From Spirochaetia bacterium (GTDB taxonomy: Bacteria > Spirochaetota > Spirochaetia > CADAEX01): a DNA stretch of 64,000 bases. Positions within the stretch are counted from its first letter, which is position 1; each line of letters begins with the position of its first letter. The translations under genes and the position numbers were made by a program. The notes beneath the pieces were generated by a model, which was given only the letters and a program-made list of their open reading frames with translations, searched no databases and was not told the origin of the DNA. Below, one piece after another: positions 99 to 58,016 of this stretch. The stretch lies in contig OY759746.1 of NCBI GenBank assembly GCA_963662795.1, positions 1,952,001-2,016,000 on the forward strand, given 5' to 3'.

Positions 99-245
99 TT
101 TTAACATTCAATTGCACCTGAAACCACCTTTTGTCACGGTTTTTGCTTTTTATTGGAGTATAGTAATAAGCGATGACGCAAAAACACATGCCAAATCCTG
201 TCGCTACGCTCTAGACCGCTGGTACAGGGAATTGATGTGTTAAAT
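99..245. repeat. Classical (Treponema-type) attC site, inner tier
   Basis: TTTTAAC...TTTTGTCACGGTTTTTGC...GCCAAATCC...GTTAAAT imperfect palindrome. Confidence 0.65.
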
Positions 246-273
246 GCACTGGAATATTTAGAAAAGAGGAAAA

Positions 274-1960: not shown

Positions 1961-2155
1961 AGCGAATGGCCGGTTCCTGCTGTTTCTAAGGAAACAGCCT
2001 CCACCCAAATTGCCGAAATAATTCATGTTAAGAATAATGGAATAGAGTATAAACTTTTGGAGTAAAAAACACCATCGGCAACTTCGGTCATTCGCGAGAC
2101 GTTATCCACAATATCATCGCAAGAGGCATCGCCCGGACCTCCGGCCAACGGGCGA
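1891..2155. repeat. Junction R3 (D; gamma; B)
   Basis: TAAC 1957, GTT 2101. Confidence 0.88.
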
Positions 2156-2229
2156 AGAAAATAGAATTTGCTGTATAATATACTTTATACATAACATATA
2201 TAGTTTTCTATTTATTTAATATGTTAGAA
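2156..2229 (+). other. attI-like leader (inner-tier insertion site)
   Basis: ATATATAGTTTTCT..TTATTTAATAT|GTTAGAA; GTTAGAA complements R'' TTCTAAC at 3203. Confidence 0.65.
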
Positions 2230-2314
2230 AGACCCTGCGGGCGGCAGAGAATAAATATCCTTTATGTCTTATTAAAAAAAGTCGATTCTTTATGGATACA
2301 TTGAAGGAGTCCTT

Positions 2315-3193
2315 ATGAAAAAAGTATTTTTTTTTGGTGTACTTGCAGGTTGTGTTTTCTCTGCATTAATTTTCATAGGTTATTATGCGGTAACAAACCG
2401 TTCTTCAAAGAATAATATTGTTTCTCCTGAAGTTCAACACCAGGTTATACAAAATATTCAAGACATAAACAAAATTCTGGATTTTGCGGATGATAGTCTT
2501 GCAGAGTATACGGACAATCTTATGGAAGTACGCGAAATATTATTAAATGCAGATGCCAAGAAATACATAAATAAGGAAGAAAAACAGAAGATTACCGGTT
2601 TATGTGAAAAAGGTCTTCAGATAATTGAAACAGCAAAGTTTAATACTCTTCCAGTATTTCATAATAATTGTGATGGAGAATACAACAGGGTTATTCCGGT
2701 AACGCTTGATGCTGCAAAACCAACATACAAACTTACCATATCGTGTATGAATTTTAATAGGAATGTAGTTAATGTATTTATTAATAGTTTAGCATCTGAA
2801 ACAGGATTAGAAAATAATATTGCTGAACTTGATAAAATAGTATCTGCCGTTACATTAGAACGCGCACAACTGGGTGCTTATAAAAACAGGCTTACACATT
2901 CTCTTGAAACAGCAGAGGTTTTATCAAAAAAAAATGCGAACGAGAGACAGACTGAAATAAACAGAATCATTCAAAAAATAAAAACTGAACAACTGGTTCT
3001 GAGCGTTCAAAGCGCTAATGGAATATATTGTTTTGAAGACAGACAACAAATTCAAGTAAACTTTGATGAACTGAATAATGAATTAAACAGAATTAATGCA
3101 TTCTCACAAAAAACAATTGCAAAGAATAACAATATTTCCTTACTCTCTCAGTCAGATGCTGAAAACGCAATGCTGTATCTTGTAAAAAAATAG
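2315..3193 (+). CDS. Membrane-anchored flagellin-domain protein
   Basis: N-terminal TM; RAQLGAYKNRL and SVQSANGIY..EDRQQIQV flagellin motifs. Confidence 0.7.
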   Translation: MKKVFFFGVLAGCVFSALIFIGYYAVTNRSSKNNIVSPEVQHQVIQNIQDINKILDFADDSLAEYTDNLMEVREILLNADAKKYINKEEKQKITGLCEKGLQIIETAKFNTLPVFHNNCDGEYNRVIPVTLDAAKPTYKLTISCMNFNRNVVNVFINSLASETGLENNIAELDKIVSAVTLERAQLGAYKNRLTHSLETAEVLSKKNANERQTEINRIIQKIKTEQLVLSVQSANGIYCFEDRQQIQVNFDELNNELNRINAFSQKTIAKNNNISLLSQSDAENAMLYLVKK

Positions 3194-3202
3194 CAATAAG
3201 AT

Positions 3203-3330
3203 TTCTAACAACTGCTTCAGCCTGATATTTTCTTTGTCACGATTTGTGCTAACTCGCTGCACTCGTCTTACGCACAAATCGCGCCAATCCGCTACGCGGC
3301 GCGAAAATACAGGTTAAGCAAATGTTAGAC
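3203..3330. repeat. Classical attC (inner)
   Basis: TTCTAAC-AACTG-CTTCAGCC...GGTTAAG-CAAAT-GTTAGAC. Confidence 0.85.
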
Positions 3331-3449
3331 AGACCCTTCGGGCAGATAAGAAAAAAACGCATTTCCGAAAGGAACCAAAAGGTGTTATACTTTGAGTGTG
3401 TTTGAATAAGCTTGAATACAGCCTTACAAAGACTAATTGGAGGTAAAGC

Positions 3450-3821
3450 ATGAATTTAGGAGCCTTTTCGGTTAGCTTAGCCGTAAAAAACATTGTTTCA
3501 TCAAAAGAATTTTATACAAAACTTGGATTTACTGAATTCGGGGGAGATATTAGTCAAAACTGGTTGATATTGAAAAATGGCGATTGTATTATTGGATTAT
3601 TCCAAGGTATGTTTGATGGTAATATATTAACATTCAATCCAGGATGGGATCAAAATTCAAATATTATTAACAACTACACAGATATAAGACTTATACAAGA
3701 AAAAGTGATTCAAAATGGAATAACACCTACTTCATTAGTAGAACAGGATAGTAAAGGACCTGCAAGCTTTACCTTAATAGATCCGGACGGTAATACAATT
3801 CTAGTCGATCAACACATTTAG
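3450..3821 (+). CDS. VOC/glyoxalase family protein
   Basis: SLAVKNI..SKEFYTKLGF; GPASFTLIDPDGN. Confidence 0.85.
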   Translation: MNLGAFSVSLAVKNIVSSKEFYTKLGFTEFGGDISQNWLILKNGDCIIGLFQGMFDGNILTFNPGWDQNSNIINNYTDIRLIQEKVIQNGITPTSLVEQDSKGPASFTLIDPDGNTILVDQHI

Positions 3822-3830
3822 AAACGAAAT

Positions 3831-3943
3831 GTCTAACAACGAGTTCGAGCGCGACAACCCTATGTCACGATTCTTGCTTTTCCGGCATTCGCCGGGCAAG
3901 AATCGTGACATTGAACGCGTTGCGGCTCAATTCAATGTTAAAA
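3831..3943. repeat. Classical attC (inner)
   Basis: GTCTAAC-AACGA-GTTCGAGC...GCTCAAT-TCAAT-GTTAAAA; long internal stem. Confidence 0.85.
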
Positions 3944-3961
3944 AAAATAGAAACGGGGGAA

Positions 3962-4253
3962 GTCCGGCCTTGGCGTTGCCGTGCGGCCCTGGACAAGAAG
4001 CGATGATACTGGTGGATAACAGCGATTATTTCGCTGCGCTCCCTTTGGTCGCTTGGGCTCCTGCCAGTTGAGCTGGCAGATCGCCATATTTTGTTTTCAT
4101 AAAACCAGAACGACATGTGTTTTATGCTTTTTATGTTTGAAAAATCAAATAAATGTATTTTAGAGTTTAGCAACAAAACATCGAATAATCGCGGGACGTT
4201 ATCCACAATGCCCCCACAAGATGCGATCGCCCGGACCTCCGGCCGACGGGCGA
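3962..4253. repeat. Junction R4 (B; beta; A)
   Basis: TAAC 4017, GTT 4198. Confidence 0.9.
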
Positions 4254-5191: not shown

Positions 5192-5253
5192 AAATTGTTT
5201 CTTCGTAAATTACCCTACAACATGAAACTGAAAAACGTTGACTAGAATATATG

Positions 5254-5280
5254 TACAGGTAGAGTAATTACCTGACAGTA
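5254..5280. repeat. Trailer hairpin CAGGTAGAGTAATTACCTG (first of 7 copies)
   Basis: Related copies at 22774, 33855, 40992, 43539, 55038, 62071, each just before a junction. Confidence 0.7.
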
Positions 5281-7602: not shown

Positions 7603-7875
7603 GTCCGGCCTTGGCTTCCAGCCGTACGGCCTGGACAAGAAGTGGGGGCACTGGTGGATAACAGAGGATAAAGCGCTTCGCTCGGAGTACCTCGCTTGGG
7701 CTTCGCCACACATCGTAGAGAGTGAACAACACCAACTATATACAACCAGTTTTAAAAGAAAAATAAAACAGCTTTGAATATCAATGCTTATCTTACGATG
7801 CGTCGCTTATCCTCAGGACGTTAGCAGCAATACGTCCCCAAGAGAACGCCGCCCGGACCTCCGGCCGACGGGCGA
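7603..7875. repeat. Junction R7 (A; alpha; E)
   Basis: TAAC 7659, GTT 7820. Confidence 0.9.
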
Positions 7876-7931
7876 AGAGGTAATGACAAGAATACGATAA
7901 AAATATATAAATATGTAATTGGGAGTCAACA

Positions 7932-9215
7932 ATGGCATGGTTTTATGAGCACAAAGAAATTATAACTCCAAATGAAATTAAACAGCTTATAAAAGAGAGT
8001 ATAAAAGAAGCGCAAAGTAGAATATCTGGTAATCCCAAAAAGGTATTATTATTACCGCCAGATATTACAAGGGCACATAGTGGTGCAGGGTGGATAACGG
8101 AAGAATTATTTTATCAATTATCTGAAAAATCAAATGTTTGGATTATGCCCACTTTAGGGCAGCATTCAGCACACACAGATGAGCAGAATAAATGGATGTT
8201 TGGAAGCATTCCAAAAAATAGAATATTAAAACATAACTGGAGAACTGATTGTATCAAGCTTGGAACAATACAAGCAGATTACGTTAGGCAAGTAACAGGG
8301 GATAGAGCTGATTGGGATATCCCTGTAACGGTAAATAAAATACTTTTTGAAGAAAAATGGGATATTATTATAAACATTGGGCATGTTGTGCCGCATGAAG
8401 TCTTAGGCTATGCTAATCATAATAAAAATTACTTTATAGGCCTAGGCGGAAAAGAAATTATTTGCGCTTCTCATATGGCCGCAGCCTGCTATGGTATTGA
8501 GAATAATTTAGGAAGGCTTGTTACACCGCTTCGTCATTGTTTTAACAAAGCAGAAAGTGAATATCTTAGTGAGCTACCAGACTTTTACATACAACTGGTA
8601 ATGGGATATAATAATCAGAGTAAACTAGTACACAAGGGATTCTATTGCGGGGATGATCTTGATACATATCTACTTGCTGCTGAACACTCAAAGAAAGAAA
8701 ACATTGCAATAGTTGAACCACTTAAAAAAGTAATCGCAGTAATGCAAGGTGATGAATTTTACAGTACATGGGTTGCTAATAAAGCAATTTATAGAACAAG
8801 AAAAGCAATGGCCGATGATGGTGAATTGATTATAATAGCTCCGGGATTAAAAAGATTCGGGGAACAGGAAGCGGTTGATAGAATAATCAGAAAATATGGC
8901 TATACTGGAACAGAAAATATTATGAAGCTCTGGAGAAAAGAACCAGAATTACAAGATCTTTCTCATGCCACAGCACACTTAATACATGGTTCTACGGAAG
9001 GAAGATTTAAAGTTACGTATGCACCTGGGTATTTGCAGAAAGAAGATATAGAGAATGTAAATTATAGATATTTAAAATATGAAGAAGCGGTAAAAGAATA
9101 TTGTCCTGAAAAATTATCAAATGGGTATAATACTCTTCCAAGTGGTGAAAAAGTATATTTTATTGAAACACCGTCAGCCGGTCTTTGGAGCACAAAAGAA
9201 AAAATGAATTATTAA
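7932..9215 (+). CDS. LarA-like (lactate racemase domain, DUF2088) protein
   Basis: PPDITR, LGQH, VVPHEVLG motifs. Confidence 0.75.
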   Translation: MAWFYEHKEIITPNEIKQLIKESIKEAQSRISGNPKKVLLLPPDITRAHSGAGWITEELFYQLSEKSNVWIMPTLGQHSAHTDEQNKWMFGSIPKNRILKHNWRTDCIKLGTIQADYVRQVTGDRADWDIPVTVNKILFEEKWDIIINIGHVVPHEVLGYANHNKNYFIGLGGKEIICASHMAAACYGIENNLGRLVTPLRHCFNKAESEYLSELPDFYIQLVMGYNNQSKLVHKGFYCGDDLDTYLLAAEHSKKENIAIVEPLKKVIAVMQGDEFYSTWVANKAIYRTRKAMADDGELIIIAPGLKRFGEQEAVDRIIRKYGYTGTENIMKLWRKEPELQDLSHATAHLIHGSTEGRFKVTYAPGYLQKEDIENVNYRYLKYEEAVKEYCPEKLSNGYNTLPSGEKVYFIETPSAGLWSTKEKMNY

Positions 9216-9273
9216 AATCGTGAATATGAATATCTTAATTAATTACATAATTTATTAAAAACAAAAGGATTGT

Positions 9274-10491
9274 ATGACAGCACAAGGTTTTATTGAATTG
9301 GAAGAAAAATACGGAGCACATAATTATCATCCGTTACCAGTAGTATTGAAAAAAGGTAAAGGTGTTTTTGTATGGGATGTTGAAGGTAAAAAATATTTTG
9401 ATTTTTTGTCAGCTTATTCAGCAATAAATCAGGGACATTGTCATCCTAAAATAATAAATGCGATGATAAGGCAAGCAATGACTTTAACTCTTACGTCACG
9501 GGCGTTTTATAATAATAAGCTTGGACTTTATGAAAAGTATGTTACTGAATATTTTGGATACGATAAAATACTTCCAATGAATACAGGAGCAGAAGCTTGT
9601 GAAACAGCATTAAAACTATGCCGTAAGTGGGCATACGTAAAAAAAGGTATTAAAGAAAATCAGGCAAAAATTATAGTATGCGAAAACAATTTTCATGGAC
9701 GTACTGTTACTGTAATTTCCATGTCAAATGACCCAGACTCTTATAATGGATTTGGGCCGTTTACCCCTGGATTTATAAAAATACCTTATAATGATTTAAA
9801 AGCTCTTGGAAAGGTACTTGAAGACCCTAATGTGGCTGGATTTCTTGTCGAACCGATACAGGGAGAGGCTGGGGTTTTTGCACCAGCTGACGGTTATTTA
9901 AGAAAAGCATATGAAATGTGCAAAGAAAAAAATGTATTATTTATTGCAGATGAAGTGCAAACAGGTATTGCCAGAACCGGAAAGCTACTTGCCTGTGATT
10001 ATGAAAATGTGCATCCTGATATTTTGATTCTTGGCAAAGCTCTTTCAGGAGGCGTCTTCCCGATATCTGCTGTGCTTTCAGATAATGAAATAATGCTGTG
10101 TATCAAACCTGGAGAGCATGGCTCCACATACGGAGGCAATCCTATTTCTGCTGAAATAGCCATTGCAGCTCTTAAAATTGTAAAAGAAGAACAGCTCGCA
10201 GAAAAAGCAGCAAAACTTGGTGAAATATTCAGGAAGGAATTAAGTGAAATAAATTCACCAATAATTGAGGAAATAAGAGGTAAGGGATTACTTAATGCAA
10301 TAGTTATAAAACCTTTAAAAGAAAAAAATGCTTGGGATGTTTGTTTAAAAATGGCAGAAAACGGATTATTGGCGAAACCAACTCATAAGAGAATAATCCG
10401 ATTAGCTCCTCCTTTGGTAATTACTGAAAGCCAAATACATGAAGCCATAAAAATAATAAAAAAATCGATATTGTTTTTTGATATTCAATAA
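9274..10491 (+). CDS. rocD: Ornithine--oxo-acid aminotransferase
   Basis: [55 protein letters not shown]. Confidence 0.93.
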
Positions 10492-10554
10492 AAGATATTT
10501 ATCAAATACGAGAGTAAAGTATCAACTTTCTATTTAAATGTTACTTTTAAAGAA

Positions 10555-10802
10555 GTCCAGCCTTGGCTCCGCCGTGCGGCTTGGACAAGAAGGGGACGTA
10601 CTGCTGCTAACAGCGAATGACCGGTTCCGGCTGTTTCTAAGGAAACAGCCTCCACTCAAATTGCCGAAATAATACATGTTAAGAATAATGGAATAGAGTA
10701 TAAACTTTTGGAGTGAAAAACACCATCGGCAACTTCGGTCATTCGCTGTTAGCAGCAGTACGTCCCCAAGAGAAAACGCCCGGACCTCCGGCCGACGGGC
10801 GA
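10555..10802. repeat. Junction R8 (E; gamma; E), perfected palindrome
   Basis: 10592-10623 is the exact reverse complement of 10736-10767. Confidence 0.9.
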
Positions 10803-12576: not shown

Positions 12577-12845
12577 GTCCGGCCTTGGCTCCGCCGTGCG
12601 GCCTGGACAAGAAGGGGACGTACTGCTACTAACAGAGGATAATTCGCTGCGCTCGGAGTACCTCGCTTGGCCTTCGGCATATTTTACTTTCACTTAATCC
12701 AGACAATTTGTGTTTTATCCTTTTTAATGGAAAAAAACAGGAAACGGTTTATAAAGTTTGAGCCGTAAAACATCGCTTATCCTCGGGACGTTATCCACAA
12801 TATCATCGCAAGAGAACACCGCCCGGACCTCCGGCCAACGGGCGA
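12577..12845. repeat. Junction R9 (E; alpha; B)
   Basis: TAAC 12630, GTT 12790. Confidence 0.9.
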
Positions 12846-12913
12846 AGAAAATAGAATCTACTGTTTAAAATACTTTGAACATAATAAAATGTATAGTTAT
12901 TTAATATTTTATC
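12846..12913 (+). other. attI-like leader, degenerate
   Basis: Aligns with 2156 leader; GTT replaced by TTT. Confidence 0.5.
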
Positions 12914-15240: not shown

Positions 15241-15348
15241 ATCTAACAATCAGTTGGAGAAGATTTGACTTTTATCACGGTTCTTGCTGATGCAAGAACA
15301 CGCGCCAACTCTATCGGGGTAGTCAAGCAGCTCAACTGAACGTTATAA
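15241..15348. repeat. Classical attC (inner)
   Basis: ATCTAAC-AATCA-GTTGGAG...CTCAAC-TGAAC-GTTATAA. Confidence 0.8.
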
Positions 15349-15667: not shown

Positions 15668-16072
15668 AAGAAAAATTAATAAACTGAGAGTTTTATAATC
15701 TGTAAGAGTGTTTGTATAAATTACCATTATAAAAGCAGAAAAAATGAAAATATAATATTATTTTAGTAGTTCCTTTCGTGTGATTTGATTATGGATTGGG
15801 TAAAAAACAAAAAAAATAAATCGCATAAAATGTAATATTTTCTTGTAAATGAAAATTATTTGGGATAAAGGTGAAAATAAAACTCTTAAGCTTGAAAGAT
15901 ATATTTCTTTCAAGATATTTGCGGATTTGATTCTGGGGCTAGTTATAAAGTTAATTTGCAAAATATTAACCTTGGAATATAGCTGATTATGATAATTTTC
16001 ATCGTCTCACACATCCATGTGTTCGACGAAGACCGCCCCAGCCAAGAAGAGCCGGCCAGCCCATCGCATAAC
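15590..16072. other. ORF-less outer unit (arm D), copy 2
   Basis: Near-identical to 1477-1960. Confidence 0.8.
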
Positions 16073-21986: not shown

Positions 21987-22769
21987 GTGTATAATATGGA
22001 AATATTTTATATAGTTATAATCATTATTGTTATTGTAATAATTCCGATGTCATTAATTTTAAGTCCTTTTGCCGTATACTCTAGGGCTGTTTTAAAAAAC
22101 TATAAGATGCAATTTGGAACAGAATTATCAAATGTTGATAAAGAAAAAATATATATAATTAAGAAAATGAAAGAAGATGGATTAACTCCTATGGATGCTA
22201 GTTGTTTATTGGCTACTTATTATAATTACGGACCAAATGAATTCTCAATTCATTATAATGCAATAAAAGACGGGAGGAAATACGATCAACCATGTAAAGG
22301 TTATAATGATACGAATAGTATTATTTATCAACAATTACCGTGTCTATTAAAAGATGCATACGAAAAAATGTTGCATGAGGCAATATCTTCATTTATGCAA
22401 TTTTGTTTAGATAACAATATAAAACATTGTAAAAATGTTGAAATCGAGATGAAGTATTTGTTTTATTTTATTTTTGATATATCAATTGCCTCAATACTTG
22501 AAAAAGAAAAAAGTAATTATGTCAGAGATAAATTTATTGATTCTTTAAAAATACCTGTAGAAAAAAGAGAAGAAATGGCTAACAGAACAATTGAATATTT
22601 TGAAGAAATTAAAAACAATAAAGATATTGAAATAAGAAATGCAGCTATTGGAAATGTTTTTGCAAAACATATTGGATTAATGTTTGATTTATTAGTCATT
22701 ACTTGGGCTTTTAATATTTTTAATAACTGCACAAGTGCAATAGAAAAAACATTACAAAAAAATATATAA
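21987..22769 (+). CDS. Hypothetical protein with N-terminal TM
   Basis: 260-aa ORF. Confidence 0.65.
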   Translation: MYNMEIFYIVIIIIVIVIIPMSLILSPFAVYSRAVLKNYKMQFGTELSNVDKEKIYIIKKMKEDGLTPMDASCLLATYYNYGPNEFSIHYNAIKDGRKYDQPCKGYNDTNSIIYQQLPCLLKDAYEKMLHEAISSFMQFCLDNNIKHCKNVEIEMKYLFYFIFDISIASILEKEKSNYVRDKFIDSLKIPVEKREEMANRTIEYFEEIKNNKDIEIRNAAIGNVFAKHIGLMFDLLVITWAFNIFNNCTSAIEKTLQKNI

Positions 22770-22807
22770 ACTATACAAGTAGAGTAATTATCTGACACTT
22801 TAAAGAA

Positions 22808-30219: not shown

Positions 30220-30402
30220 GTCCAGCCTTGGCTCCGCCGTGCGGCTTGGACAAGAAGCCTGGCCACTACGTATAACACAGCATAACCGGTTCCGGCCATT
30301 CGGCCTTCACCAAAATTGCTTCGCAACTTCGGTTATGCTGGGAACGTTATGCTCAATACCAGCCGCAAGAAGAAATCGCCCGGACCTCCGGCCGACGGGC
30401 GA
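30220..30402. repeat. Junction R18 (F; minimal delta core; G)
   Basis: TAAC 30273, GTT 30346. Confidence 0.88.
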
Positions 30403-30476
30403 AGAAAAGATGTTGTGCTGTTTGATATACTTTAAACATAAAATATATAGTTTTCTAATTATTTAATATGTTATAT
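30403..30476 (+). other. attI-like leader
   Basis: ..TAATAT|GTTATATTG complements CAATATAAC at 32036. Confidence 0.65.
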
Positions 30477-32037: not shown

Positions 32038-32143
32038 ATATAACAATCAGTTGGAGCAGATTTGACTTTTATCACAGTTCTTGTAGAGTAAGAACACTCG
32101 CCAACCTTTCAAGGTAAATAAACTGCTCAGCTGGGCGTTAAAA
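32038..32143. repeat. Classical attC (inner)
   Basis: ATATAAC-AATCA-GTTGGAGC...GCTCAGC-TGGGC-GTTAAAA; same family as 15241. Confidence 0.8.
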
Positions 32144-36982: not shown

Positions 36983-37256
36983 GTCCGGCCTTGGCTTCCA
37001 GCCGTGCGGCCTGGACAAGAAGTGGGGGCACTGGTGGATAACAGAGGATAAAGCGCTTCGCTCGGAGTACCTCGCTTGGCCTACGGCACACATCGCAGGT
37101 TTTGAAGTATAACTTCTATAAACAACTAGTTTTAAAAAATAAATACTGCAATTTTAAAAATATTATACATTGACTACGATGCGTCGCTTATCCTCAGGAC
37201 GTTATAAGCAATGTTCCCGCAAGAGAAAATCGCCCGGACCTCCGGCCGACGGGCGA
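36983..37256. repeat. Junction R22 (A; alpha; H)
   Basis: TAAC 37039, GTT 37201. Confidence 0.9.
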
Positions 37257-37336
37257 AGAAAACATGATCCACAATATAATTATAATATTCGCTATAGATA
37301 AAATATATAGTTTTCTTGTTGTTTAATATGTTATCT
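37257..37336 (+). other. attI-like leader
   Basis: ATATATAGTTTTCTTGTTGTTTAATAT|GTTATCT. Confidence 0.6.
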
Positions 37337-37414
37337 TCCCTTCGAGGAAAATCCAAAATTACTATATAGAGAGTAAAAAAAATTAAAAACAAAATAAATA
37401 AAGGATTTAAAGTT

Positions 37415-38244: not shown

Positions 38245-38351
38245 ACATAATAAAAAGATGGAGCAGATTTGACTTTTGGCACGTGTTCTTGCATAGCAAG
38301 AACACGTGCCAATCCTTCAGAACAGTCAAACAGCTTAACTTGGCGCTATGT
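38245..38351. repeat. Degenerate classical attC (inner)
   Basis: Homologous to 15241/32038 (GGAGCAGATTTGACTTT..GTTCTTGC..GCAAGAAC); core sites mutated. Confidence 0.7.
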
Positions 38352-39277: not shown

Positions 39278-39403
39278 ATATAACAAAGAATTCAATCTGA
39301 CATTTCCTTTGTCACGGTTTGTGCGACTAGCATCGCTCATTTTCATGCACAAACCGTGACAAGTCCTCCGGACGCGGAAACGTAGGTTAACTCAATGTTA
39401 AAA
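39278..39403. repeat. Classical attC (inner)
   Basis: ATATAAC..TTCAATCTGAC..TTGTCACGGTTTGTGC..GCACAAACCGTGACAA..GGTTAAC-TCAAT-GTTAAAA. Confidence 0.82.
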
Positions 39404-43502: not shown

Positions 43503-43571
43503 AAAGATTAAAAGTAGAAAATCTATTATTATTTTATGTACAGGTAGGGTAATTACCTGACAGTAAATGGA

Positions 43572-44755: not shown

Positions 44756-45047
44756 GTCCGGCCTTGGCGTTGCCGTGCGGCCTGGACAAGAAGCGGCTGG
44801 TACTGGAGCATAACAGCGATTATTTCGCTGCGCTCCTTGTGGTCGCTTGGGCTCCTGCCAGTTGAACTGGCAGATCGCCATATTTTGTTTTAATAAAACC
44901 AGAATGACATGTGTTTTATGTTTTTTAAGTTTGAAAAAACAAATAAATGTATTTTAGAGTTTAGCCACAAAACATCGCATAATCGCGGGACGTTATCCAC
45001 AATATCATCGCAAGAGAAAATCGCCCGGACCTCCGGCCAACGGGCGA
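44756..45047. repeat. Junction R26 (G; beta; B)
   Basis: TAAC 44811, GTT 44992. Confidence 0.9.
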
Positions 45048-45124
45048 AGAAAATAGAATCTGCTGAATAATATACGTTATACATAAGATATATAGTTTTC
45101 TTGTTATATAATATGTTCTACAGA
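45048..45124 (+). other. attI-like leader
   Basis: ..TAATAT|GTTCTACAGA is the exact complement of TCTGTAGAAC at 46519. Confidence 0.7.
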
Positions 45125-45138
45125 ATAAAGGGGATAAA

Positions 45139-46518
45139 ATGAGTTGTTATCACTGGGGCTTATCCCCAGAAAGCGATTGTAGGAAACTCACAAATGAGCT
45201 TGTTTACCGTGATAAAAATGGGCATCAGTACTGTTTAGTACATGCACCTAAATATTATGTTCAACCAAAAGGTTTCTTTTTAGGTTATATTGAAGAACAT
45301 AATGCCAATTCAATTCAATTCAAAAAAGACGATTTTGACAAACTACTAGATAAAACGATCTCAATTCAAAAAGAGCACTCTATGATTCGTTTTGATAAAG
45401 TGTATTTTCCCGATAATTTTCACTATACACTTCCTTTAGACTTAGCAAAAGGAAAGGACATCTGGTTAATAGAGTGTAGTTTTAATCTTACGATATGTAA
45501 TTCCCAAGTAAAAAGAATATCAATAACAAGATGTAAAATCGATGGTCTTACAATGCATAATCTGGAAATTGATGAGACTTTAATCCATTTCTCAAAAATT
45601 AGCAAATATTTAACTTTCAGAAATAATTCATACAATACATTTTCAATACAAGATTGTGAAGTAAATTGCAGGGTTGACTTTCGAGATAATAGTGTAAAAG
45701 ATAATTCACAGTTTAAGTGCTCAGTATACTTCAATCAATCAATATTTAATCGAACTGTTAAAATTGAGAATCTGCATTACGATAATGATTTATCAGAAGT
45801 CCGAATTTTAGATAACGAATTTAATAATAATTTATATTATCTTAATAATAAAATAGGAGACGAAATAAATTTTATTGATAATAAGTTCAATAATAGTTTT
45901 GCATATCTAGAAAATATCGACTTATCAAAGACAAAATTTGACTTACGAAATCTCGAATATTTAAGATTCAATAATTGCCGATTCCCCAAAAAATTAAAAT
46001 CAATTGAAGATGAATCTTTACAAAATGCTTACGAGATATACCAAGCACTAAAAAGAAACTCATTTGAACAAAATGATAATCAAGCTGCTTCGAAATGGCA
46101 TTATTTAGAAAAACATACCCTAAAAAAGATATATAGTAAGTCAAAGAAAATATTTAATCTAATAATTTTAACCATATATAATTTGCTTAGTGGTTATGGA
46201 GAAAAACCAGGTAAAGCTCTATTTGTTTTAGTGGTAGAAATTATTATGATTTTAGCTATTTACATTTATATAGGAAATAGAATTAGCGAAAATCTTAACT
46301 CGGATATAATTATTAGATGTATTTTTAGTCTCTCTGATGGTATTCCATTTATTAATTTTCCTATCGAATATACGCTTAAGCAACTTCTTGTGCGAAATAC
46401 AGATCTAATAGAAATCTCACATGTATATAATGTTGTAGCTGGAATAGGGAAAATATTGATTTCATTACAATTAGCGTTATTTTCTTTTGCGATAAGAAAT
46501 AAAATGAAGAGAAATTAA
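45139..46518 (+). CDS. Beta-solenoid (pentapeptide-like) protein with C-terminal TM region
   Basis: Repeating xFxN units; SGYGEKP..TM..AIRNKMKR. Confidence 0.65.
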   Translation: MSCYHWGLSPESDCRKLTNELVYRDKNGHQYCLVHAPKYYVQPKGFFLGYIEEHNANSIQFKKDDFDKLLDKTISIQKEHSMIRFDKVYFPDNFHYTLPLDLAKGKDIWLIECSFNLTICNSQVKRISITRCKIDGLTMHNLEIDETLIHFSKISKYLTFRNNSYNTFSIQDCEVNCRVDFRDNSVKDNSQFKCSVYFNQSIFNRTVKIENLHYDNDLSEVRILDNEFNNNLYYLNNKIGDEINFIDNKFNNSFAYLENIDLSKTKFDLRNLEYLRFNNCRFPKKLKSIEDESLQNAYEIYQALKRNSFEQNDNQAASKWHYLEKHTLKKIYSKSKKIFNLIILTIYNLLSGYGEKPGKALFVLVVEIIMILAIYIYIGNRISENLNSDIIIRCIFSLSDGIPFINFPIEYTLKQLLVRNTDLIEISHVYNVVAGIGKILISLQLALFSFAIRNKMKRN

Positions 46519-46521
46519 TCT

Positions 46522-46628
46522 GTAGAACGAGCAAATGTAGCAGTAAACTTTTTTGGCACACAAATATGCAGTCGCAAATTGTCCGCCAACTCTTCGGGAC
46601 AAAGTTCCAGCTGATTTGGACGTTATAA
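46522..46628. repeat. Classical attC (inner, diverged)
   Basis: GTAGAAC..CAAATGTAGC..GCTGATTTG..GTTATAA. Confidence 0.7.
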
Positions 46629-52818: not shown

Positions 52819-53068
52819 AATCAATCTGCCGTCCATGGCAGATTGATTAAGGCGGGGGACACTGCAGCTAACAGCGAATGACCGGTTCCGGCTGTTTCTA
52901 AGGAAGCAGCCTCCACCCAAATTGCCGAAATAATACATGTTAAGAATAATGGAATAGAGTATAAACTTTTGGAGTGAAAAACATCATCGGCAACTTCGGT
53001 CATTCGCGGGACGTTATCCACAATGCCCCCACAAGAGAAAATCGCCCGGACCTCCGGCCGACGGGCGA
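52819..53068. repeat. Junction R32 (C; gamma; A)
   Basis: TAAC 52869, GTT 53013. Confidence 0.88.
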
Positions 53069-53142
53069 AGAAAATACAACATGCAGTATAATTTATTCAA
53101 TAACCCAAATAAATAGTTTTCAAGAATATTGATATGTTTTAC
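53069..53142 (+). other. attI-like leader (diverged)
   Basis: AAATAGTTTTC..TGATAT|GTTTTAC; no inner attC found downstream. Confidence 0.45.
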
Positions 53143-55010: not shown

Positions 55011-55070
55011 TACTTAGCTTTGATATAAAAATATATATGCAGTTAGAGTAATTACCTTGCAATATAATAA

Positions 55071-56228: not shown

Positions 56229-56498
56229 GTCCGGCCTTGGCTCCGCCGTACGGCTAGGACAAGAAGTGGGGACACTGGTGGATAACAGAGGATAATGCGC
56301 TTCGCTCCCTTTGGTCGCTTGGGCTTTGCCACACATCGTAGGTTTTAAACTATAACTTTTAGAAACAATAAATATTTGAAGAAATAAATTACAACTTTGA
56401 GCTTTTGTTTTTTATCTACGATGCGTCGCTTATCCTCGGGACGTTATCCACAATGCCCCCACAAGATGCAATCGCCCGGACCTCCGGCCGACGGGCGA
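56229..56498. repeat. Junction R34 (A; alpha; A)
   Basis: TAAC 56283, GTT 56443. Confidence 0.9.
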
Positions 56499-56572
56499 AG
56501 AAAATATAATTTACAATATAATATAAACTATACACAGAATATATGGATTTCTTGTTATTCAATATGGTATAT
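56499..56572 (+). other. attI-like leader (diverged)
   Basis: ATATATGGATTTCTTGTTATTCAATAT|GGTATAT. Confidence 0.55.
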
Positions 56573-56591: not shown

Positions 56592-57446
56592 TTGAATATT
56601 CCTAATTCGCAAATTGAAAGTTGGCAAAATCAGGGAGCGCAAAGCGCATCAATCAATTCACATACTTCGATAAGAACCGCAATAGAAAATATTACTCAAG
56701 AATTTAATTTTGAAATATTCCTTCAAGGTTCTTATAAAAATCATACAAATATACGTGGTGACAGCGATGTAGATGTTGTAATCAATATAAAGGAAATGTT
56801 TTATCATAATTTAAATGAATATGAAGCAAAACAGGTCGGAATTATACCTGCGGCTTTTACTTGGCATGACTATGAAAAAAGAATTAAATATTGTCTAAAT
56901 GAGTACTATACACAAAAACCTATTCGTGTGGGAGCTAAATCAATCAAAATTGATTTTCAAAATTCGTCTTATGTTCCTGCTGATGTTGTAATTACCACAG
57001 ATTATCGATTCTATACTTCCTTAACTCATTATATAGAAGGTATTTGTCTGTTTAACCGAACAAACAACAATTTAATTGTAAACTATCCAAAACAACATTT
57101 TGATAATGGAAATTCTAAATCAACAAGAACAGATGGGAATTTTCGGAAGTATGTTCGCTTGATTAAAAATGCACGAAATTGGATTTTAGAAAATTATATT
57201 CCTCCTAGTTTTAATGCTCCCTCATATTTTATCGAATCTCTACTTTATAATTGTAATGACTTATTACTTAAACAAACTCCTGAAGAATTTCTAAGATATG
57301 CCATTAATATGTGGGAATACAACAATGAGACAGATCAAAAATGCCAAAATGAGATTTCCCCTCTCTATGGAATTGATGATACTTCTTGGAATCATCATAA
57401 TAAAGTTCAATTTGCTGCAGCCTTACGTAATCTATTTGGAGTTTAA
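56592..57446 (+). CDS. CBASS CD-NTase (CdnE-like)
   Basis: QGSYKNHTNIRGDSDVDV, NYPKQH, PSYFIESLLYN. Confidence 0.88.
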   Translation: MNIPNSQIESWQNQGAQSASINSHTSIRTAIENITQEFNFEIFLQGSYKNHTNIRGDSDVDVVINIKEMFYHNLNEYEAKQVGIIPAAFTWHDYEKRIKYCLNEYYTQKPIRVGAKSIKIDFQNSSYVPADVVITTDYRFYTSLTHYIEGICLFNRTNNNLIVNYPKQHFDNGNSKSTRTDGNFRKYVRLIKNARNWILENYIPPSFNAPSYFIESLLYNCNDLLLKQTPEEFLRYAINMWEYNNETDQKCQNEISPLYGIDDTSWNHHNKVQFAAALRNLFGV

Positions 57447-57449
57447 TTA

Positions 57450-58016
57450 ATGCATAAATATTACACCGACTCAACATCCGAACTATATGTCCAATTTTTC
57501 TTAGGAGCTATTTCATTACTATTTGGTTTCTTTATATCAATGTTACCTATTCATAATCCATTCTCTTGGGTTATTTCTGCTCCAAGTGCTTTATCGATAT
57601 TTAGCATCCTGAATTATTTGTTTTCAAAAATTGGTTGGAAAATGCTATCAAAAATGATATCGGCAATTCCAGATTTAAATGGAACATACTCAGCAAAAAT
57701 ATTTTCAGATTCAGAATCTGAAAAGTTTGATTCTGAAGTTACTTTAACTATTCGACAAACATGGAAGAAGATATCAATTATTCTTACAAGCAGATATTCT
57801 AGATCTGAAAGTATTTCTGCGGCTTTTTATTCAGGTGGTGAAAAGCTTATTTATAACTATAAAAATGAGCCTTTATATGATTCAGTTGATACAATGAATA
57901 TACACCGTGGTACTGCAGAATTCCTTATTGAAGATAAACAACTAAAGAGTGGAAATTATTATAATGATAGACATCGAAAGACATCAGGCGTCATAAGAGA
58001 AATAAAGAAAATATAA
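57450..58016 (+). CDS. CBASS Cap15-like 2TM beta-strand effector
   Basis: 2 TMs; PDLNGTY, IRQTW, YNYKNEP, HRGT, YYNDR. Confidence 0.82.
   Translation: MHKYYTDSTSELYVQFFLGAISLLFGFFISMLPIHNPFSWVISAPSALSIFSILNYLFSKIGWKMLSKMISAIPDLNGTYSAKIFSDSESEKFDSEVTLTIRQTWKKISIILTSRYSRSESISAAFYSGGEKLIYNYKNEPLYDSVDTMNIHRGTAEFLIEDKQLKSGNYYNDRHRKTSGVIREIKKI

Follow-up and report, generated by a model that had tools for sequence, protein, structure and literature searches.

An integron is taken to possess a single docking site (attI) and a single promoter, so that in large chromosomal arrays new cassettes enter at one place and only the first ones are expressed. Here we consider a leader of ~70 nucleotides (nt), and the array units that begin with it, in a window of 64,000 nt (positions 1,952,001-2,016,000) of the one-contig, 3.93-Mb genome (GC ~30%) of a Spirochaetia bacterium (contig OY759746.1). 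At this locus a putative docking site is carried on a unit that may itself be mobile, 31 times in one array and with different cargo each time. A first-pass annotation, made from the letters of the window alone, had proposed a nested, two-tier architecture in which outer units carry an attI-like site loaded with classical attC cassettes. Two independent footprints, one in the chimeric outer sites and the other at the inner leader junctions, support this proposal, and we hold the nesting to be real with a high degree of confidence.

The closest described systems are the following. An integron has one attI, and the attC sites of Treponema chromosomal integrons measure 63-132 bp (PMC3607928); attI is described as double-stranded, its L and R integrase boxes inverted and spaced 4-5 bp (PMC12614218). 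The leader site resembles attI in that G|TT is where cassettes with a folded attC are joined, the first cassette bases complement their own R'', conserved sequence lies only 5' of the crossover, the site is not a hairpin and a possible promoter stands just upstream. It differs in that attI lies beside the integrase gene, one per integron, whereas the leader has 31 copies away from any such gene, sits inside a cassette of another array and has no homology to the attI of related true integrons. The Delta-attI-type cassettes of mobile integrons have attI-derived sequence within the cassette array and are reported functional in IntI1 recombination (PMC12901181); unlike these, the present case has a non-homologous docking site with its own leader, in a carrier that has no open reading frame (ORF) of its own and is bounded by a second type of site. 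Cassettes inserted at a GTT outside their own attI are also described for attG sites (PMC12614218, citing Loot et al. 2024), but these are scattered, unrelated genomic sequences, whereas here one conserved 28-nt core is reused, repeated and apparently portable. The ORF-less promoter-bearing cassettes of 10.1101/427781 are similar in having no ORF and in that they may supply a promoter to downstream cassettes; unlike the carriers here they are described with a classical attC and no docking site, and promoter activity of the leader is putative. The sedentary chromosomal integrons of Vibrio and Treponema share with this locus long same-strand arrays of cassettes of mostly unknown function, species-typical repeated sites, and toxin-antitoxin and insertion sequence (IS) elements within the arrays. 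In contrast to those integrons, the outer sites here are ~290 nt long with flanking hairpins and ~19-nt 'address' extensions, and the recombinase is without the IntI insert. Our search of the literature, most subscription journals lying outside it, found no description of cassette-borne docking sites or nested arrays.

The window is part of a 330-kb array of 167 same-strand units, each bounded by attC-like outer sites of ~290 nt, and is densely occupied by these repeats, of which 34 window copies were aligned. With its recombinase end the array spans genome positions 1,846,782-2,180,042 (loci L009-L026), or 8% of the genome. The right hairpin of the outer site has 160 copies at two mismatches or fewer and 167 at three or fewer, all on the plus strand between 1,850,162 and 2,180,018 and none elsewhere in the genome. 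From 5' to 3' the aligned sites consist of a left hairpin (GTCCGGCCTTGGC..GCCGTGCGGCCTGGAC), AAGAAG, a variable stretch of ~20 nt ending in ..ATAAC, a long stem (for example AGAGGATAA.GCG ... CGCTTATCCTC) surrounding a variable centre, GAC|GTTAT followed by ~15 variable nt, CAAGAG, and the invariant right hairpin CGCCCGGACCTCCGGCCGACGGGCG. Folding 12 outer sites to a consensus gives 46 pairs, with compensatory changes in 12. The variable stretches that flank the outer core boxes fall into ~8 covarying types, and the extended R' (~19 nt) of one outer site complements the extended R'' of the following site in 81% of 126 pairs, complementarity being counted at a score of at least 14; the corresponding values are 35% when both belong to one site (n=118) and 13% when pairs are drawn at random. 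The outer repeats are therefore chimeric and bound cassettes, as in an integron, and this is the pattern that former circles, recombined at or near the G|TT, would be expected to leave. Even taken alone the outer array is unusual, with ~167 cassettes, two invariant hairpins per site and ~19-nt covarying extensions of the R boxes, and its 25-nt right hairpin is found in identical form in other genera.

About one array unit in five (31/167) has the leader, which ends in ...TTATTTAATAT|GTT, at its 5' side. A profile made from the seven leaders of the window finds 31 copies genome-wide (E<1e-3, 3.93 Mb), all on the plus strand and within the array, and every copy begins ~21 nt past an outer right hairpin. 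The seven are where the first-pass annotation had placed them, with GTT at 2223, 30470, 37330, 45115 and 53136, TTT at 12908 and GGT at 56566. In an alignment that includes copies from other genomes, block 1 reads AAGAAAAT..CTGCTG-TATAAT-ATACTTTATACAT and block 2 is the 28-nt core ATATATAGTTTTCT.TTTATTTAATAT (aligned form ATATATAGTTTTCTAGTTATTTAATAT|GTT). Conservation ends exactly at the GTT, and G|TT is the proposed crossover point. The TATAAT of block 1 may be a -10 box; the hexamer occurs within 60 nt of the right hairpin in 21/31 leader units, compared with 36/136 other units and 8% of random windows. The leader folds weakly (-3.5 to -7.3 kcal/mol, z -0.02 to -2.1) into structures that differ between copies, and since this is unlike attC a double-stranded site is the better guess. 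We also considered the leader as a small attC-like hairpin and rejected it: although one copy allows a 9-bp inverted repeat, the key C varies among copies and the fold is neither strong nor consistent. With leader and tail read jointly the R box is GTTATA(A/C), and the leader units have at least five extended-R types, which go together with types of tail.

The inner sites are attC sites of the classical kind. The alignment of seven from the window shows pairing of R'' with R' and of L'' with L', in 21 predicted pairs of which 13 have compensatory changes, and their inverse core boxes, R'' (..AAC) and R' (GTT..), close an imperfect palindrome. Three of them, folded as bottom strands, give stable hairpins with visible bulges (-17.7 to -33.1 kcal/mol, z -3.3 to -6.6), equalled by no more than 1 of 200 shuffles. 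The covariance model R1, derived from the seven, scores them at 69-104 bits; over the whole genome it gives at least 27 matches (150 of 451 candidates scored), all on the plus strand and inside the array, and on the array loci 30 distinct sites (32 rows minus one overlap duplicate and one reverse-strand echo). A second model (R2), for which 59 sites from here and from the relatives were used, adds four weak sites, every one in leader units. Rfam at gathering thresholds has no match in the window or in loci L020 and L024. Seven of the eight inner sites that had been reported from the window (3203, 3831, 15241, 32038, 38245, 39278 and 46522) were recovered; the eighth, described as eroded at 58011, is matched by neither R1 nor R2, and by eye it retains an R'' box that matches the bases past the leader of its unit. 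The further claim that leaderless units of the window are free of attC also stood, all eight model matches being in leader units. Successive inner attC of a unit also pair, R' to following R'', as GTTAGAC / GTCTAAC do at 3324 and 3831. Since the 30 inner cassettes belong to 28 families, the junction has been used many times independently; Pfam gave weak matches or none for ten cassette ORFs.

Leader and inner attC occur together far more often than would be expected if they were unrelated: with R1 only, inner attC are found in 22/31 leader units and 4/136 others (Fisher p = 1.4e-16), and with R1 and R2 in 24/31 and 4/136 (Fisher p = 7e-19). Twenty-three leader units have both the leader-end GTT and an attC, one further unit being dropped because its leader ends in TTT. 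In 18 of these 23 the R'' of the first inner attC is complemented without a mismatch by the four variable bases past the leader GTT; with permuted partners the mean is 1.96 and the maximum 8, and none of 10,000 permutations reaches 18. The complementarities originally quoted (GTTAGAA/TTCTAAC, GTTATATTG/CAATATAAC, GTTCTACAGA/TCTGTAGAAC) are correct, and the footprint of insertion at G|TT claimed from them holds at a frequency far above permutation. As predicted for integron recombination, such a match is what a circular cassette leaves on its insertion at G|TT, and it is by this footprint, not by homology to the attI of the clade, that leader and tail together are called attI-like.

At the other end, the last inner attC is followed by a short A-rich tail, of at least three types genome-wide, which leads into the left hairpin. 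The tails reported at 3937, 15342, 32137 and 46622 are present, and by eye a tail of one of these types stands behind an attC-like R' box in 25/31 leader units. In 21/28 leader units (75%), and in 83% of 98 other units, the extended R'' past the left hairpin has its match in the extended R' that opens the unit. This match within their own unit indicates that leader, inner cassettes and tail form one outer cassette, and the leader side and tail side are accordingly the two ends of that cassette, which the inserted classical cassettes have driven apart. Both footprints together cannot come from a single tier that holds two classes of attC.

The same arrangement is found in other genomes. The outer right hairpin is present in 5/40 relatives (G002, G005, G008, G011 and G020), and the leader pattern matches G005 and G008 among these 40, two further matches with three mismatches being at chance level; the same two were found among 19 other genomes of the order. 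Exact scans with the leader pattern gave 2 genome records and 3 metagenome contigs. Altogether leader units occur outside this genome in G005, G008, G011 (in a shorter form) and the metagenome contigs L047-L049, and all carry other cassettes, so that the differently loaded versions which had been anticipated in related genomes do exist. In all four that were checked the bases past the GTT match an R'' box or its remnant (G008 GTTCTAAAGA/TCTTTAGAAC, G011 GTTATATGATC/GATCATATAAC, L049 GTTAAAT/ATTTAAC, and G005). The leader was not found in the two other genomes that share the genus of the present one.

Several observations weigh against the reading of the leader as a dedicated, attI-like docking site. 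Five of the 23 junctions are imperfect. In the window, the bases past the eroded leader end of unit 12820 are not complementary to the R'' at 15241, and the first attC of unit 37231 matches 3/4 variable bases and has mutated boxes (AAT, GCT). Seven of the 31 leader units are without a model-supported attC, two or three of which by eye retain an attC 3' end and tail, and five leader units (2005043, 2008473, 2064727, 2103969 and 2159480) are by eye also without a tail. Three of these five (2005043, 2064727 and 2103969) end in a hairpin motif that also closes ordinary outer cassettes, and it follows from such units that the leader also serves as the plain 5' region of an ordinary outer cassette. 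Unit 53043 of the window (2005043 in genome numbering), which has a leader, neither inner attC nor tail, and this same closing motif, counts against any strict rule that every leader is loaded. Conversely, an attC of the inner type is present in four leaderless units: two are duplicates whose exact junction is preceded by another, shorter sequence (..AGTATAT|GTTAGAAG / CTTCTAAC), one has no matching start and one a weak match. The empty platform, the other form that the first-pass annotation had envisaged, was found neither among the 31 units here, where the smallest spacing of right hairpins is ~877 nt, nor among the 6 leader copies elsewhere. Tails of type b vary by 4 nt in length just past the R' box (GTTATAC-TGG.. 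as compared with GTTAAAT-ATAC-TGG.. and GTTAGCT-ATAC-TGG..), which a simple G|TT crossover fails to explain. A simple sigma-70 scan detected no complete promoter, with both -35 and -10 elements, in the leader, and match counts in the region equal those of shuffles, which leaves the TATAAT enrichment as the one promoter signal that stands; likewise no clear L box 4-5 bp from the R box can be defined in the AT-rich leader sequence.

To the same side belongs the relation of the leader to intI. No leader was seen next to an integrase gene, and nhmmer found none beside any intI, those of G005, G008, G011 and G020 included. The last 30 nt of the leader, in the G|TT register, share 8-12 identities with four attI regions (null 8.8, standard deviation 2.7), and only ..(A)ATAT|GTTAT is common to the leader and the attI of G011 and G020. 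The comparison with the attI beside intI that the first-pass annotation had suggested thus gives, for the relatives' sites, no detectable homology to the leader, and the idea that the leader is a copy of the clade's attI was rejected. In this genome, moreover, comparison with an intact relative shows the true intI to be a pseudogene, damaged by a single frameshift and a single in-frame stop, and no attC was found beside it.

Some of these points suit a different explanation, in which the leader is an AT-rich 5' region of outer cassettes that happens to be a good secondary target of the attG type for IntI, and loaded copies have spread by duplication. Besides the lack of homology to attI, the five leader units without any trace of an inner cassette and the two leaderless units with an exact junction behind different sequence agree with this, and excised cassettes are reported to integrate at genomic attG sites (PMC12614218, citing Loot et al. 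2024). We nevertheless consider this explanation unlikely, as it does not account for 28 different cassette families at exactly one G|TT, nor for a 28-nt core that is kept in 31 paralogues, on at least five outer-site types and across genera, with conservation that stops at the crossover. In metagenome contig L047 the core is present without leader block 1, which likewise speaks against this explanation.

As to the enzymes involved, the array is headed by an Xer/IntI-like tyrosine recombinase of 339 amino acids (aa), whose gene is separated from the first right hairpin, ~2.4 kb downstream, by two variant sites of the outer type. Its best match is the XerA-type model NF040815 (214.5 bits, below the cut-off of 220); the integron-integrase model TIGR02249 gives 200 bits (cut-off 265) in two stretches that skip model positions ~172-230, and an IntI-family integrase with the specific additional domain was not found at the outer array. 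Homologues of the 339-aa protein are widespread and are named XerD or 'site-specific tyrosine recombinase/integron integrase'. A second XerA-type recombinase, of 294 aa (NF040815, 217 bits; cut-off 220), is present inside the array on the opposite strand. The best integron-integrase match in the genome is the intI pseudogene at ~412 kb, 1.4-1.8 Mb from the leader copies, which apart from its two lesions retains 54-80% identity to the intact relative, the IntI-specific region included; the flanking IS genes we take to be IS3-like and IS30-like. With its true intI broken, this genome has an inner tier that is probably frozen at present.

That one enzyme, the Xer/IntI-like recombinase or its 294-aa paralogue, acted on both tiers and true IntI was uninvolved appears improbable, and more so than an attG-type origin. 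This recombinase is the sole intact candidate near the array, the intI of this genome being broken, and the boxes ..ATAAC/GTTAT.. are common to both classes of site. In addition, a classical attC cassette of metagenome contig L049 stands between variant forms of the right and left outer-type hairpins (120-150 and 2585-2625), and the exact right hairpin lies within the 5' region of classical cassettes in G020 (L044:1490-1520), so that these hairpins are not exclusive to the giant sites. The inner attC, however, have their kin elsewhere. In G005, G008 and G011, which belong to another genus of the family and have intact IntI (384-400 bits; cut-off 265), divergently oriented arrays of the same attC family (R1 up to 108 bits) directly adjoin IntI and lie away from the outer arrays. 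G020, of another family, has a split intI, also with attC sites of this family. Thus the inner type of attC stands beside a true intI in four relatives and not in the present genome. Inner attC here reach 94% identity to those of G008 over 138 nt and 96% to those of G020 over 68 nt; the coding parts of the cassettes do not match between this genome and the relatives. All four leader-bearing genomes have an intI gene, three intact and one broken, whereas in G002, of the same genus as the present genome, outer hairpins and the Xer-like gene are found and neither true intI nor leader, a contrast drawn from few, mutually related genomes. Finally, AAC and GTT are both in register in 18/25 inner sites here and in 33/34 of the relatives' arrays, three of the seven counted as eroded here being alignment offsets with an intact AAC; this erosion fits, if weakly, a decay after loss of the integrase.

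Contigs from short-read runs, which break at the repeats, were compared with the window. A contig of run X1, which may be from the sample of origin, spans 2197-3968 (1,772 nt) with no differences, and contigs of runs X4 and X5, from another sample and study, span 2197-3256 and 3298-3966, likewise with none; as contigs of two samples span them, the junctions are not an artefact of assembly. In X4 and X5 the leader platform (2197-3966) is identical and the neighbouring outer cassette (7850-10579) differs at 74 positions and in 9 gaps over 2.7 kb, so divergence is uneven along the array. The joints listed for the runs have short flanks and a sequence gap between their sides, and so speak neither for nor against excision. 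The absence of any nesting, with the array single-tier and of two attC classes (as arrays of mixed-length attC are known; PMC3607928) and the leader a shared 5' untranslated region, or with the assembly at fault, is very improbable indeed, being already contradicted by these contigs, by a first inner R'' that should complement the outer R' and instead complements the bases past the leader GTT, and by an extended R'' behind the last inner attC that matches the outer R' of the unit start over ~19 nt.

The mechanism that best explains the nested units is probably insertion by a true integron integrase at an attI-like, promoter-linked and portable docking site. The first tier consists of ~167 outer cassettes, the array starting next to the 339-aa Xer/IntI-like recombinase that has no IntI-specific insert. 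The second tier is formed by 31 of these outer cassettes acting as carriers, which would be ORF-less once their cargo is removed; a bare carrier would consist of two outer-site halves, the ~70-nt leader and a tail of ~25 nt. Circular classical cassettes, with an attC of 100-150 nt folded single-stranded, would be recombined by true IntI into the double-stranded leader|tail at G|TT. Further cassettes could follow, either at this point or through attC x attC exchange, so that a carrier would come to hold 1-2 and sometimes more. If the TATAAT block is a promoter, a carrier is in effect an integron platform without integrase, consisting of promoter and docking site, and many carriers would provide many expressed slots in an array far too long for a single promoter. 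A loaded carrier might then be moved or copied as one outer cassette. It is possible, although here we are more doubtful than convinced, that the whole constitutes a hierarchy of two recombinases, in which the Xer-like enzyme shuffles outer cassettes and IntI loads a portable module of promoter and docking site that has been multiplied to 31 copies.

If this proposal is correct, the locus shows a way for many positions of a very large array to be expressed, for cassettes to outlast the integrase platform that was their own and for one site-specific recombination system to be stacked on another, with whole loaded mini-integrons movable as single cassettes. The 28-nt core would also be a short, defined, non-canonical integrase target for the study of site recognition.

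The features of the window and of related loci are collected in the table below.

Table. Positions of leader units and associated features (window coordinates unless a locus or genome position is given)
Feature	Position	Strand	Remarks
Weak inner attC	99-245	+	31-36 bits; leader just before the window (genome 1,950,760-1,950,832); tail type b
Outer (platform) cassette, 5' end	2101-2154	+	R' box GTTATCC (2101-2107) with extension, CAAGAG spacer, right hairpin 2130-2154; extended R'/R'' pairing score of unit 15
Leader	2155-2225	+	blocks 1 and 2; G|TT at 2223-2225
Inner cassette 1	2224-3324	+	ORF 2315-3193, 292 aa, weak flagellin-N-like match below cut-off; attC 3203-3330, 91.4 bits with R1, R'' TTCTAAC, R' GTTAGAC, -33.1 kcal/mol, z -6.6; cassette start GTTAGAA complements R''
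Inner cassette 2	3325-3937	+	ORF 3450-3821, 123 aa, no Pfam match; attC 3831-3943, 68.8 bits with R1; R'' GTCTAAC complements preceding R' GTTAGAC
Tail type a, TTAAAAAAAATAGAAACGGGGGAA	3938-3961	+	behind last inner attC; putative right half of docking site, left there
Platform cassette, 3' end	3962-4198	+	left hairpin 3962-3994, AAGAAG, extended R'' 4000-4020 (complements 2101-2120), outer L''/L' stem running to G of GTT at 4198
Leader, eroded end (TTT for GTT)	12845-12910	+	inner attC 15241-15348 (103 bits); tail from 15342
Leader	30402-30472	+	attC 32038-32143 (104.3 bits); tail from 32137; GTTATAT/ATATAAC
Leader	37256-37332	+	attC 38245-38351 (92.5 bits) and 39278-39403 (84.8 bits)
Leader	45047-45117	+	ORF 45139-46518; attC 46522-46628 (88.5 bits); tail from 46622; GTTCTAC/GTAGAAC
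Divergent leader	53068-53138	+	followed by 601-aa ORF; unit 53043
Leader, eroded end (GGT)	56498-56568	+	possible eroded attC near 58011, matched by neither model
Tail type b length variants	genome 2,028,877-2,038,700; genome 2,141,082-2,142,480; window 230-270
Hairpin motif GTACAGGTAGAGTAATTACCTGACAG	5246-5275; 22767-22800; 43531-43565; 55030-55065; and others
GC-rich hairpin and GGAG-like start	2226-2250; 3331-3350; 37333-37350; L062:~15937-15960
IS copies behind inner attC	L020:15206-18370 (genome ~2,074,706-2,077,870); genome ~2,146,929-2,149,618
Xer/IntI-like tyrosine recombinase, 339 aa	L009:1782-2801		array head
XerA-type recombinase, 294 aa	L005:1147-2031 (genome ~2,050,713-2,051,597)	-
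intI pseudogene	L002:1219-2435 (genome ~412,089-413,305)		between IS genes

Some smaller features of the array also deserve mention. A small conserved hairpin motif (..GTACAGGTAGAGTAATTACCTGACAG..) is found directly 5' of the left hairpin in several outer cassettes, three leader units without an inner attC among them. The same IS, with transposase ORFs of 211 and 293 aa and presumably IS1182-like, starts right past the R' box of an inner attC in two leader units. A group II intron was considered for the sequence shared behind the attC at 2,074,705 and 2,146,928 and rejected, there being no Rfam match and the shared sequence being the end of this IS. In the leader unit with the end GGT, ORF 56592-57446 has weak nucleotidyltransferase and SMODS-like matches (23 bits; SMODS below cut-off) and may be a defence-type gene. 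Inner cassettes often open, just past the R' box, with a small GC-rich hairpin and a GGAG-like ribosome-binding sequence (GACCCTGCGGGC, ACCCTTCGGG), and the first cassette of the classical integron of G005 also begins in this way.

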